A DNA stretch of 32,000 bases from the NCBI GenBank assembly GCA_964501355.1, contig CAZCSM010000011.1, positions 1-32,000 of the forward strand, written 5' to 3'. Of this stretch, positions 1-23,036 are shown piece by piece. The notes under the pieces are model-generated. The model saw only the letters and a program-made list of their open reading frames with translations. It was not told where the DNA came from and made no database searches. This DNA comes from an uncultured Candidatus Saccharibacteria bacterium (GTDB taxonomy: Bacteria; Patescibacteriota; Dojkabacteria; CAZCSM01). The position numbers and the translations under genes are program-made. How positions within the stretch are numbered: the stretch's first letter is position 1; every line of letters begins with the position of its first letter.

Positions 1-150
1 GCTTCCAAAGATATTCTACTACCTTTGGTCAACTGGTTCAGTATATTAGGGGAAACCAAACACCTTAAATCAATGATGTTCTTTTTGAATTTTTATCTGT
101 CATTTTTCATTTTGAGACTTGAATTTTGATTTTGTCAAACCCACCTCAAT

Positions 151-172: not shown

Positions 173-239
173 AAGTTCATAATTGCTGGTTCCTGGCTGT
201 TTTCAAAGAAAACACTTGGAACCCTTTTTGCACTTCGTC

Positions 240-260
240 CTTTGTCTTTTGTCATTTGTC
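240..260 (+). repeat. Three tandem heptads (TTTGTC core) ending in GTCATTTGTCCC box
   Basis: cTTTGTC TTTTGTC ATTTGTC read directly. The 12-nt box GTCATTTGTCCC (251-262) recurs exactly at 14640-14651, after four similar heptads. Confidence 0.7.
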
Positions 261-268
261 CCATAATA

Positions 269-301
269 TTGACAGTAAGTAAGTAAGTAAGTAAGTAAAA
301 T
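269..301 (+). promoter_or_regulatory. Candidate sigma70-type promoter with a microsatellite spacer
   Basis: -35 TTGACA (269-274) and -10 TAAAAT (296-301) are separated by 21 nt made entirely of GTAA units. It lies 31 nt upstream of the ATG at 332. Confidence 0.4.
275..298. repeat. (GTAA)x6 tetranucleotide microsatellite
   Basis: Six perfect GTAA units read directly. Confidence 0.95.
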
Positions 302-331: not shown

Positions 332-812
332 ATGACACCGCAGCCTCCAACACGAGAATCAGAACCAAATGTTTTAACACTAGACCAAATAGAAAATGCA
401 CTAATTACAACTGACGAAGTATTACCTGAAAAAAAAAGGTGTTAGAACAGACACCTTTGCAGGGTATACTGAACCCGAATTATTAATATCTGATATTTTA
501 CAATTTGACCCTCGTTTAGGTGTAACAGAATACGATATGTCTACAGCAGCTTTCCTACAAAGTGTAGGTTTAGATGATTATATACAACCGTTTTACACAC
601 AACTTGAAACAGAAACAGGTGGTAAAGAAGCCACGAGATTACAACGTACATTAGCCCTCGTAAATGCAGTAGTTGCACCAACAGTAAGTGTCGAAGAGCG
701 ATATCACCCAGCAACAAGAATTATGAAAGGCGTTGTTGATATAGTTAACCAGTCTCAAGAAGAACCCTATCAATTTACACAGGCTTTCATAGAAGCAGTT
801 GCTCGCAGCTAA
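332..812 (+). CDS. Hypothetical protein with reading frame split at an A9 homopolymer
   Basis: The ATG at 332 opens a frame that stops at TAG 443-445. The frame of track ORF 537..812 is already open from 405. The two frames overlap across the A9 run at 429-437, and removing one A fuses them into about 160 aa. No recognisable family. Confidence 0.5.
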
Positions 813-832
813 CATCTTACAAAAGTATGTGA

Positions 833-858
833 AAGTCACCCGCCTCGGGTGACTTTTT
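833..858 (+). terminator. Rho-independent terminator
   Basis: 9-bp stem AAGTCACCC/GGGTGACTT with a 5-nt loop, followed by a T run, 21 nt after the stop at 812. Confidence 0.8.
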
Positions 859-872
859 CTATCTCATCTTTA

Positions 873-8199: not shown

Positions 8200-10416
8200 A
8201 TGAAAATCTACAATCTTAAAATTGCAAAGACTCGACGATTGTTCACGATCAGTATTGCAATATTATCCTGCATCTTTTTTTTCAGTAAAAATTTTCTTGA
8301 AAAGGCCTATGCACTAACAGAATCTTTTTCTCCCGCTGATTTAGTCATAGGTCAACCTGATATGATAAGTGGAACAGCGAATAATGGAGGAATCAGTGCT
8401 TCTAGTTTATCGTGGACCTACTCTGTTTTCAGTTATGGCGAAAATGTATATGTAGCAGATACAATGAACAGTAGAGTTTTAATATATAATGGAACACCAG
8501 GAGAAGATAATTGGGATAATGTAGCTGACTATGTGATAGGTCAACCTGATATGGTAAGTAATACTGGGAATAATGGAGGTGTAAGTGCTAGCAGTTTGTA
8601 TCAATCTTTTTCAGTTGCTACAGATGGAAGAAATGTTTATGTGGCGGACTTTATTAATAACAGAGTTTTAATTTATGATGGAATTCCAGGAGAAGAGGGC
8701 TGGGATAATGTCGCAGATTATGTTATTGGTCAACCTGATATGACCAGTGTTACTGCAAATAACGGGGGAAGAGGTGCTAGCAGTTTATATCGACCAACTT
8801 CGGTTGCCACAGACGGAGAGAGAGTCTATGTTGCAGATAACAATAACAATCGAGTATTGATTTATAATGGAATACCAGGAGAAGTAGGATGGGATAATGT
8901 AGCTGACTATGTGATAGGTCAACCTAATATGACCAGTGGTACTGGAAACAATGGAGGATTAAGTGCCAGTAGTTTATATCAACCAACTTCGGCAACCACA
9001 GATGGAGAGAGAGTTTATGTAGCAGATTATGTTAATAGTCGAGTGTTAATCTATGAGGGAATACCAGGAAAAGAGAGCTGGGATAATGTCGCAGACTATG
9101 TAATAGGTCAACCTGATATGACTAGTGGTACCTCTAATAACGGAGGGGTAAGTGCCAGTAGCTTGTTTTTCCCACGGTCAGTTAACACAGACAGAGAAAA
9201 AGTCTATGTGGTTGATAGCTATAACCATCGAATTTTGATCTACGAGGGGATACCAGGAGAGGTAGATTGGGATAACATCGCAGACTATGTAATAGGACAA
9301 TCTAATATGACAAGTAATACGAAAAACAATGGAGGTGTAAGTGCTAGTAGTTTATCTGAACCAACTTCGGTTACTACAGATGGAAGAAATATATATGTGG
9401 CAGAAAGGCTTAATTATCGTGTACTAATCTATTACATGGGTCCACAAAATATGAGTTTCACTTCAGTTTCTAGCTTAAGCAATAGCTTGACAGGAAACAC
9501 TTTTACTCTTGCAGGACGTGATGCAAAAGAGATGATGATATCTGAAGACAATGCTTTTGACGGAATCCCATGGGAAAGTTTTTCAACTTCAAAACTGTTT
9601 AGTCTTTCATCTGGAGATGGAATAAAGACTGTATATGCTAAGATGAGAGATTATGCTAATTATGAAGGAGAAGTACTATCAGCAACAATTACTGTAGATA
9701 CAACTAAACCAACAGGTACATTTTCAATCAATACAAATTCTACCTACACAAACACACCAGTTGTTACACTCACACTATCAGCAAGTGATAACCTCTCAGG
9801 AGTATCACAAATGATGATTTCAAACACTTCAGTTTTTACAGGAGCAAGTTGGGAAAACTATTCAGCAACTAAACAATGGACACTACCATCGGGAGATGGA
9901 GAGAAGAGCGTATATGTTAAGTTTAAAGATAACGCAGGAAATGAATCATTGGTTGTTAGCGATACTGTTATTCTAAAAACCGCTGCACTTCTAACACTAG
10001 ATCTGACTAATCTAAATTATCAACAAACACAGGAGAGATATACAAGAGCAGAAGGAGAACCGGTGATAGTAAGAGGAACAGCAGAACAGAGTACGGTGGT
10101 AACAATCACAGCATTAACGGAAGAAGGAGTAGTGGTTTACGAGACCCAATTAACAGTAGGAGAAGGTGGTAACTGGGAGATAGACTTAGGAGATGTTTTA
10201 GGAGTAGGAACATACCTAGTACAAATAACAACGACCGATCCGGCAGGGAACATAGCATCGAGTGAGTTTACTTTAGGTGTCGAAGCTGTTATAGAAGAAG
10301 TCGAAACTTTACCACAGACAGGAGAAGGAATTATAATTCCGTTTTTCCTAGGAATCTTCTTATTGTTGAAGCACTTTATGAAAAATAAAATGACTAAGCA
10401 ATATATTTTTCACTAG
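8200..10416 (+). CDS. Sortase-anchored six-bladed NHL-repeat beta-propeller surface protein
   Basis: N-terminal signal/TM. Six 63-aa repeats (ADYVIGQPDMTSGT.NNGG.SASSL..P.SV.TDG..VYVAD..N.RVLIY.GIPGE..WDN, including YNHRILIY). Two repeats of about 110 aa (SGDGxKxVYxK..D.AGNES type). C-terminal LPQTGE + hydrophobic segment + KHFMKNK tail. Confidence 0.85.
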   Translation: MKIYNLKIAKTRRLFTISIAILSCIFFFSKNFLEKAYALTESFSPADLVIGQPDMISGTANNGGISASSLSWTYSVFSYGENVYVADTMNSRVLIYNGTPGEDNWDNVADYVIGQPDMVSNTGNNGGVSASSLYQSFSVATDGRNVYVADFINNRVLIYDGIPGEEGWDNVADYVIGQPDMTSVTANNGGRGASSLYRPTSVATDGERVYVADNNNNRVLIYNGIPGEVGWDNVADYVIGQPNMTSGTGNNGGLSASSLYQPTSATTDGERVYVADYVNSRVLIYEGIPGKESWDNVADYVIGQPDMTSGTSNNGGVSASSLFFPRSVNTDREKVYVVDSYNHRILIYEGIPGEVDWDNIADYVIGQSNMTSNTKNNGGVSASSLSEPTSVTTDGRNIYVAERLNYRVLIYYMGPQNMSFTSVSSLSNSLTGNTFTLAGRDAKEMMISEDNAFDGIPWESFSTSKLFSLSSGDGIKTVYAKMRDYANYEGEVLSATITVDTTKPTGTFSINTNSTYTNTPVVTLTLSASDNLSGVSQMMISNTSVFTGASWENYSATKQWTLPSGDGEKSVYVKFKDNAGNESLVVSDTVILKTAALLTLDLTNLNYQQTQERYTRAEGEPVIVRGTAEQSTVVTITALTEEGVVVYETQLTVGEGGNWEIDLGDVLGVGTYLVQITTTDPAGNIASSEFTLGVEAVIEEVETLPQTGEGIIIPFFLGIFLLLKHFMKNKMTKQYIFH
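8335..9468 (+). repeat. Six tandem 189-bp coding repeats (NHL blades)
   Basis: The unit start GC(T/A)GA(C/T)T(A/T)(T/A)GT(G/A/C/T)ATAGGTCAACCTGATATG recurs at 8335, 8524, 8713, 8902, 9091 and 9280, an exact 189-nt period. Confidence 0.9.
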
Positions 10417-13254: not shown

Positions 13255-13391
13255 CCCTTATTATCTGTATTGGGTTGTTGAATCGTCGAAGTCTGAAACA
13301 AGTGATTCCGGTTGCTATTTGCTTTAAGGTCGTGCTTGGAGGGAGTTCACTTGTTTCAGAAATTTTGGTTACTTTTGTTTGCAAAAGTAAC
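13255..13391 (+). repeat. Structured intergenic repeat, copy B
   Basis: 5' box ATCTGTATTGGGTTGTTGAATCGTCGAAGTCTG. P1 is TCTGAAACAAGTGA (13292-13305)/TCACTTGTTTCAGA (13347-13360). P2 is 13368-13377/13382-13391, identical to copy A. Confidence 0.85.
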
Positions 13392-14621: not shown

Positions 14622-14649
14622 TTTTGTCGTTTGACATTTGTCATTTGTC
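14622..14649 (+). repeat. Four tandem heptads (TTTGTC/TTTGAC core)
   Basis: TTTTGTC GTTTGAC ATTTGTC ATTTGTC, then CC. Same motif family as 240-260. Confidence 0.7.
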
Positions 14650-14673
14650 CCTCCGTTTGCTATTCTATATAAA
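14645..14673 (+). promoter_or_regulatory. Candidate promoter of the 14697-15407 gene pair
   Basis: -35 TTGTCC (14645-14650), 17-nt spacer, -10 TATAAA (14668-14673), 24 nt before the ATG. Confidence 0.3.
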
Positions 14674-15407: not shown

Positions 15408-15509
15408 AATTTCTAATTACTCTAATTGACCTAATTTCTAAATAATAAGCGGTATTTCACAATGCTCTGGTGCTATTAATTCACCCACTTTCTATTTTCA
15501 TTTTTCGCC

Positions 15510-20372: not shown

Positions 20373-20509
20373 CCCCTTTATTATCTATATTTGGTTGTTA
20401 GTCGTTGAGGTCTGGAACAACCTGTTCCGGTAGTTATTTGTATTAGGTTGCTATCTGCTGGAATTAGGTTGTTCCAGAAATTTTGGTTACTTTTGTTTCC
20501 AAAAGTAAC
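20373..20509 (+). repeat. Structured intergenic repeat, copy C
   Basis: P1 is TCTGGAACAACCT (20411-20423)/AGGTTGTTCCAGA (20466-20478). P2 is 20486-20495/20500-20509. It is in + orientation although both flanking genes are on the minus strand. Confidence 0.85.
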
Positions 20510-20526
20510 AGAGATGAATATTTCCA

Positions 20527-22928: not shown

Positions 22929-23016
22929 AAGCGAATCGTCGCGAATTCAAAACTTCTCGACTCCGCTCGAAGAATAAAATTGTTTCTAATATTACTAAAG
23001 ATATAAAAAGTTTTTT

Positions 23017-23036
23017 CCTTTTTCCTTTTTCCTTTT
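23017..23036. repeat. (CCTTTTT)x3 heptamer repeat in the divergent murJ / methyltransferase spacer
   Basis: CCTTTTT CCTTTTT CCTTTT read directly. Confidence 0.85.

Follow-up and report, generated by a model that had tools for sequence, protein, structure and literature searches.

A perfect GTAA microsatellite spaces the hexamers of a candidate phase-variable promoter in a Patescibacteria genome

A small gene near the start of the window (the whole stretch of 32,000 nucleotides that was analysed) is a credible candidate for control by a repeat-spaced, phase-variable promoter, well supported if unproven. We propose that positions 234-860 form a self-contained transcription unit upstream of the sortase gene, which would encode a lineage-specific, non-secreted, helical protein of 159 aa. 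The unit would be read from a sigma-70-type promoter in which TTGACA and TAAAAT are parted solely by (GTAA)n. Slipped-strand mispairing would shift n in steps of 4 bp, and as the spacing would change by the same steps, promoter strength should switch almost digitally. In the genome as assembled, the unit would be doubly silenced, once by its unit number and once by a frameshift. Taken as a whole, we consider this proposal somewhat better than even, with a probability of roughly 0.55. That n changes at a useful rate within populations, and that the switching is adaptive, are the parts that we infer; tracts of four to six units are short compared with the well-studied Haemophilus loci, and switching rates may therefore be low. 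The features of the unit are collected in Table 1.

Table 1 Features of the proposed transcription unit in window coordinates. TRF, Tandem Repeats Finder.
Feature	Position	Strand	Basis and remarks
T-rich heptad array TTCGTCC TTTGTCT TTTGTCA TTTGTCC C	234-262	+	TRF, period 7; directly 5' of the −35
−35 hexamer TTGACA	269-274	+	Sequence reading; consensus; identical in the sister species (L003 1394-1399)
(GTAA)6, perfect microsatellite, putative promoter spacer	275-298	+	Sequence reading, TRF; orthologous tract (GTAA)4 in L003/L008
Candidate −10 hexamer TAAAAT (5/6)	296-301	+	TAA supplied by the last GTAA unit; kept in the sister species (L003 1413-1418)
Regulated gene, first 35 codons	332-436	+	Codon usage; aligns to P0029 residues 1-34; frame stops at 443-445
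A9 run, one A above the in-frame A8, +1 shift	429-437	+	Three-frame translation; alignment across the site
Perfect 8-bp hairpin AAAGGTGT-N8-ACACCTTT	435-458	+	Abuts the A run; absent from the sister species
Regulated gene, remaining 124 codons and stop	438-812	+	+1 frame; codon usage; P0029 alignment
Intrinsic terminator, 12-bp stem, loop CCU, T5	829-860	+	Fold −17.7 kcal/mol, z = −4.85

The original prediction had described a strong −35/−10 pair whose spacer is filled by the repeat, and re-reading of the sequence bore this out to the letter: both hexamers and the six units lie where they had been placed (Table 1), with a spacer of 21 nt (275-295) between TTGACA and TAAAAT. In the TRF output, 274-298 appear as (AGTA)6.2, all of the matches (100%) being perfect. 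Its end lies 33 nt from the ATG; from the end of TAAAAT the distance is 30 nt, and 29 nt in the sister species described below. The hexamer pair by itself is not significant against chance, as TTGACA-N15-23-TAWAAT occurs once in the window at an expectation of 0.37 and was found at least once in 31 of 100 shuffles. The microsatellite, in turn, is beyond chance. It is the sole tetranucleotide repeat of at least four units in the 32-kb window, and among about 190 kb of non-redundant related Patescibacteria DNA (about 220 kb surveyed overall) the orthologous tract of the sister species is again the sole case. With six units, the tract passes the PhasomeIt cut-off for candidate phase-variable tetranucleotide repeats (five units or more, no further than 200 bp from the ATG; PMC5953494), and the four-unit tract of the sister species falls below it. 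The Logan assembly of run SRR8925812 (L001) matches the window at 100% identity over 23-2776, (GTAA)6 and A9 included. As two independent assemblies agree and the sister species carries an orthologous tract, an artefact of assembly is improbable.

This sister species was found via sortase homologues and is represented by contigs L003 (SRR29243436) and L008 (SRR29243437), with a sortase 87% identical to that of the window. Its locus comprises dnaJ (minus strand), 280 nt of intergenic DNA, a gene for 154 aa (plus strand) and the sortase gene (plus strand), and the sequence upstream of the 154-aa gene reads ...GTCCCATAGAGAAAAT-TTGACA-(GTAA)4-AATACT.... A perfect simple repeat between recognisable −35 and −10 hexamers is thus present in both species. 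A block of 27 nt, consisting of TTGACA, (GTAA)4 and AATAC, is identical between them, and the remaining intergenic DNA can be aligned at about 55-61%. Between the identical TTGACA and AATAC flanks, the window and L001 carry six units and L003 and L008 carry four, so that related genomes with conserved flanks have unequal unit numbers. An invariant unit number in related genomes had been named by the original prediction as an outcome that would count against it; the opposite was found. As silent changes between the two species approach saturation, the hexamers appear to be under constraint, and the repeat appears to have been kept perfect while its unit number changed. From this conservation and from the position of the hexamers we infer that TTGACA/TAAAAT is a promoter in use. 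Within each species, the consensus assemblies agree in unit number (L001 with the window, and L003 with L008 over 2952 nt), and each pair possibly samples one population. A further assembly, L002 (DRR835035), agrees with the window at 100% identity and begins at 487, short of both the GTAA tract and the A run. The source species is represented by a single NCBI MAG contig and by Logan fragments, and each of its tested proteins stands alone in its cluster at 90%. Scans for variable-unit DNA patterns, two on JGI metagenome contigs and one on viral contigs, returned no matches.

We next consider how unit number would bear on promoter spacing. Promoter strength was judged solely by plain consensus matching of simulated copy-number alleles. 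Within the flanks of the window, five units give TTGACA-17-TAAAAT, which matches the consensus at 11 of 12 positions; three units give TTGACA-18-GATACT (10/12). With six or more, no TTGACA-based candidate is found, and the remaining TTGACA-17-TAAGTA lacks the T at −7. Simulation within the flanks of the sister species gave a similar picture: 17 nt and 11/12 at five units, TTGACA-16-AATACT or TTGACA-18-TACTAT (both 10/12) at four, and none at six or more. By consensus matching, then, some attainable unit numbers yield a spacing of 16-18 nt and others yield none. The five-unit allele outscores all other promoter candidates of the window, the best of which reach at most 9 upstream of the 14 other genes, and scores of at least 10 occurred in 0.4% of control windows.

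Five units would accordingly provide the 17-nt optimum, and the simulation agrees with the earlier statement that the loss of one unit regenerates the same −10 at 17 nt. To take five units as the sole ON state would be too simple, since the four units of the sister species give 10/12 in front of an intact ORF. The optimal number itself is seen in neither species. At four units, as in the sister species, a nearby −10-like hexamer, at a spacing of 16-18 nt, may take over; together with the intact ORF, this makes the sister gene plausibly on. At six units, as in the window, TTGACA-21-TAAAAT or TTGACA-17-TAAGTA would be left, which predicts off or very weak expression, and with its frameshifted ORF the window gene is therefore expected to be silent on both counts.

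The use of sigma-70-like promoters seems to be more general in this genome, with consensus use in the lineage only modestly supported by the sequence comparison. The best promoter matches upstream of the 14 genes score 8.2 on average, compared with 7.3 for coding controls and 7.8 for shuffled upstream DNA, and 36% of the upstream regions reach at least 9, compared with 9-14% of the controls. If this holds, sigma-70-type −35/−10 logic may be read directly from CPR sequence. By eye, start codons in the window (e.g. at 1045, 8200, 10778 and 24335) are preceded by almost no Shine-Dalgarno-like motif within 25 nt; the leaders are A/T-rich, with probable −10 elements ending 24-44 nt before the start codon.

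Several of the candidates end 24-33 nt ahead of the start codon. Those of the sortase, RuvX, orf104 and NHL genes lie 31, 30, 30 and 33 nt from it, and the 29-30 nt between −10 and ATG at the GTAA locus fall into the same class in both species. A distance that is conserved and typical of the genome argues against the notion that the repeat is kept for some other reason, such as an operator or a 5'-UTR element, with the promoter elsewhere, e.g. near the heptad array, and with unit number having little effect via −35/−10 spacing. We regard this notion as rather improbable. It can point to the conserved heptad array just upstream, which recurs before orf104, to the missing five-unit allele in either species, and to precedents for repeats outside the spacer, namely the TAAA tract of nadA (PMC2791445) and the heptamers of hmw (PMC2651432). 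There is also an alternative promoter at 242-269 (TTGTCT-16-TAATAT or TTGTCT-17-AATATT), but at 8/12 it is weak, and it is not conserved in the sister species, where the exactly conserved bases are instead the two consensus-like hexamers. An Rfam search of the region likewise returned no family at the gathering threshold, with chance-level matches only, near the terminator. Judged from the sequence, the locus does not appear to belong to the distal or 5'-UTR type represented by nadA and hmw, as its repeat lies between the best hexamers. A minus-strand promoter that would use the repeat as its −35, with TATTAT at 263-268, was rejected as a poor match; by eye, TATTAT is replaced in the sister species.

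The gene under this promoter turned out to be larger than assumed. The original prediction had named the small ORF at 332 (37 codons), which proved to be the first part of a 159-codon gene (332-812) that is broken by a single additional A. Three-frame translation shows the +1 frame open over 412-812, and removal of one A yields a single protein of 159 aa. We scored codon usage after training on the 14 confident genes of the window, for which real genes reach 0.35 ± 0.18 and wrong frames about −0.84. The first frame scores 0.53 per codon over 332-436, and the second frame 0.41 over 438-812 as a whole, 0.41 over 537-809 and 0.39 over 438-536, which lies upstream of its first ATG. Because the scores are gene-like on either side, the coding signal changes frame exactly at the A run. 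The intact orthologue of the sister species (P0029, 154 aa) aligns at 55% identity over residues 8-156, straight across the frameshift (...DEVLPEKKGVR... in the window, ...DEVLSDEKGVK... in the sister species). The same alignment puts the conserved start at ATG 332, by which a GTG at 323 was rejected as start codon. Nei-Gojobori estimates between the species are pN 0.31 and pS 0.63 (dN/dS about 0.29) for the regulated gene, and pN 0.07 and pS 0.72 for the sortase. Together, alignment and pN/pS estimates suggest that the regulated protein is real, constrained and fast-evolving. The small ORF and an annotated 91-aa ORF are thus two halves of one gene; as they were annotated apart, MAG annotations near simple repeats can evidently mislead.

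Downstream, the terminator (Table 1) shares 30 identical nt with L003 1938-1967 despite near-saturated silent sites in the ORF. This block occurs once in the window and otherwise only at the loci of these two species (L001-L003 and L008). Judged by sequence comparison, the conservation of the terminator hairpin is unusually strict. With promoter and terminator both conserved, the gene is probably a monocistronic cassette.

The A9 run at the frameshift is the longest homopolymer in the window, where 25 kb of confident coding sequence reaches at most A7 or T8. It lies at codons 33-35, close to the 5' end, and sets the frame: A8 would be in frame, and the orthologue reads through. The sister species has A5 at this site and no hairpin; the A8/A9 run of the window arose in this lineage. 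Poly-A/T tracts are customarily considered phase-variable from a length of at least 11 (PMC5953494); A9 stays under this cut-off and has the same length in both assemblies of this strain. The codon that follows the run is AGG. On the minus strand, hairpin and A9 read as a hairpin followed by T9, which resembles a terminator.

Sister A5 and missing hairpin also bear on the question whether the gene is expressed as assembled, with A9 and hairpin acting as a deliberate +1 frameshift or transcriptional-slippage site, in which case an off state would not hinge on the promoter repeat. The ingredients for such programmed recoding exist. A runs of nine or more cause RNA polymerase slippage, AAA-AGG, with its rare AGG codon (3.0 per 1000 codons compared with 17.4 for AGA), would let tRNA-Lys slip one base downstream and pair again on AAA 435-437, and a perfect hairpin follows the run. 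Against this, the hairpin starts inside the A run rather than 5-9 nt downstream, and the orthologue of the sister species is a plain, uninterrupted open frame without A run and hairpin, so that recoding is not a conserved feature. We therefore rate it as very improbable. A −1 frameshift at A AAA AAA was also considered and rejected, as it leads into a short dead-end frame.

A second slippage site within the same unit adds to the proposed switch. The gain of one A in the A8 run breaks the window gene as well, which would place it behind two hypermutable, reversible sites. That the locus is a true contingency locus in CPR, in which two independent slippage tracts (the spacer repeat and the coding A run) toggle the gene, is a tentative extension that we hold to be possible and no stronger. 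Apart from the A run, the 159 codons contain no stop or indel, and codon usage is fully gene-like, so that any inactivation would have to be very young when set against the dS > 1 that parts the two species. This counts against one-way decay, by which an accessory gene is under loss and both the expansion to six units and the extra A are ordinary slippage mutations, with no adaptive switching. In such a scenario the repeat would be a mere mutational weak point of a once-strong promoter, and this has to be taken as a serious alternative. Two inactivating changes do coincide here, next to a sister species with intact ORF and usable spacing, and no variation is seen between consensus assemblies or samples. 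Moreover, the orphan gene is missing from more distant relatives, in which dnaJ adjoins the sortase gene, and is therefore dispensable. Yet the promoters of both species have retained a perfect repeat instead of purging it, and a single slip would reverse either lesion. On balance, we consider decay unlikely and continue to favour the switchable promoter.

The distribution of the gene was followed through its sortase neighbour. In three contigs with sortases 54-58% identical (L005, L006 and L025), the upstream minus-strand gene adjoins the sortase and the orphan gene is absent. This upstream neighbour is dnaJ in L005 and L006; in relatives, the slot of the orphan gene is the one between dnaJ and sortase. 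Two further contigs (L007 and L026) have the sortase gene at their very start and are uninformative on the slot, and the contig of the P0007 lineage (sortase 83% identical) is too short to reach the locus. A search of genome contigs with the sortase sequence alone returned no relatives; a search with the sortase alignment returned only distant Patescibacteria, mostly at 25-39% identity, none of them with the orphan gene or its repeat. Among GTDB representatives, related sortases, again mostly 25-39% identical, belong to MAGs assigned to Dojkabacteria, WWE3 and 'Saccharibacteria'. As the related sortases come from Patescibacteria, the original designation of the genome as CPR-like finds support.

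The regulated protein is acidic, its predicted structure is helical, and neither a signal peptide nor a transmembrane segment was predicted. Searches against Pfam, PHROGs, PADLOC and PDB sequences gave no matches, and NCBIfam gave chance-level matches alone (E = 0.064 and 0.15). Among about 15 billion proteins, the family has two members, and an AlphaFold model built with one or two sequences reached a pLDDT of about 45. A cadherin-repeat match (P0031, E = 9.5e-7) was rejected as spurious, since it reflects four repeated stretches in a high-GC, autotransporter-like protein. Exact-protein look-ups of the 37-aa ORF1 and of the SBP protein each returned no record. With no signal peptide, transmembrane segment, known family or confident fold, this does not seem to be a typical phase-variable surface or restriction-modification gene.

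Promoters of this architecture have counterparts in well-known systems. In Neisseria meningitidis porA and opc and in Mycoplasma hyorhinis vlp, a homopolymer lies between the promoter hexamers and its length sets expression. The GTAA locus shares the position of its tract with these genes and differs from them in that their tracts are homopolymers that change in steps of 1 bp and control surface antigens of host-adapted pathogens. In the hifA/hifB region of Haemophilus influenzae, the −35 and −10 enclose (TA)9-11 (van Ham et al. 1993, summarised in PMC2651432), and control of spacer length by slipped-strand mispairing is established there (PMC2651432). Both loci use a perfect simple repeat as spacer, in an intergenic region beside a divergently oriented gene, and by analogy slippage at the GTAA locus would likewise alter spacing and hence transcription. 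According to the same account, the hif unit measures 2 bp and produces graded levels, whereas the 4-bp GTAA unit is predicted to act nearly all-or-none; hif, as described there, has two overlapping divergent promoters for surface fimbriae, whereas the GTAA locus would have a single promoter for an orphan, cytoplasmic-looking protein of Patescibacteria, known from sequence alone. Neisseria meningitidis nadA also carries an AT-rich tetranucleotide repeat in its promoter region, with the copy number of TAAA modulating transcription (PMC2791445). In nadA, however, the repeat is found 5' of the −35 and alters the spacing of distal elements and the binding of NadR and IHF instead of the −35/−10 distance (PMC2791445). 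The A run finds its parallel in intragenic poly-G and poly-A phase variation in Neisseria, Campylobacter and Mycobacterium (PMC5953494, PMC11898584). As in these systems, it shifts the frame, 33 codons into the ORF, and would be reversed by the loss of one A; unlike them, it is below the cut-off and missing in the orthologue. A coding homopolymer and a promoter repeat in one small gene are an unusual combination.

The proposed mechanism is thus known in kind. New are the tetranucleotide spacer unit with its near-binary steps of 4 bp, its combination with a homopolymer in the coding part of the same gene, and the host lineage. In the literature that we searched, no paper tied simple sequence repeats or slippage to Patescibacteria/CPR; reports nearby concern a Gracilibacterium gene that is hypervariable through in-frame repeats (PMC6851277) and hsdS invertons predicted for a few Saccharibacteria (PMC7672463), and others no more than touch on phase variation. 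The locus is the first candidate of its kind that we were able to find for Patescibacteria. Simple-repeat phase variation has so far been described almost entirely from cultivated, host-adapted pathogens. If the locus is indeed toggled by its two tracts, CPR would gain a first case of simple-repeat phase variation. An ultrasmall bacterium that probably depends on a host would then be hedging its bets stochastically, possibly in connection with host or phage interaction. A conserved repeat-spaced promoter in CPR would show that stochastic switching occurs in reduced-genome organisms as well.

Several further repeats were observed in the window and around the sister locus. T-rich arrays with a period of 7 nt occur at 234-262, 14623-14651, 15480-15508 and 23012-23036, in the forms TTTGTCN x4 and (TTTTTCC)3.6, in upstream or intergenic positions at the orphan gene, orf104, a DUF11 surface protein and a divergent MurJ/methyltransferase pair. 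The first array is 86% identical to the second, upstream of orf104, and these two have the 15-mer TTTGTCATTTGTCCC in common. The sister species has (ATTTTTG)~8 at the corresponding position (L003 1311-1364). The perfect (TTTTTCC)3.6 is also above the usual cut-off for heptamer repeats. These arrays could be UP-like elements or the site of a common regulator. A second intergenic family is present at 2743-2855 and 20398-20510 (113 nt, 89% identical) with a third copy at 13342-13391 (50 nt); its members lie after the M48 gene, between RuvX and YceG, and between holA and orf200, and end in the hairpin GTTACTTTTG-TTT-CAAAAGTAAC. Judged by sequence, the family may represent either a miniature repeat element or a terminator. 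The gene for an NHL-repeat surface protein (8335-9477) contains five to six tandem units of 189 nt that are 65-78% identical, and has a T8 run near its 5' end (8275-8282).

At the edge of the window, positions 1-75 (minus strand) align to the 5' end of the sister dnaJ; they read KKNIIDLRCLVSPN... without an ATG and with changes in the conserved YY/LGV of the J domain, and the gene runs off the window. The sister species has a CIRCE-like operator, TTAGCAAAC-N9-AAGTGCCAA, at about L003 1176-1202, for which no counterpart was seen in the window by eye. Downstream of the sister sortase, a small DUF3006 gene contains a T9 run in two samples (L003 3452-3460 and L004 1109-1117); the matching slot of the window holds the M48 peptidase gene.
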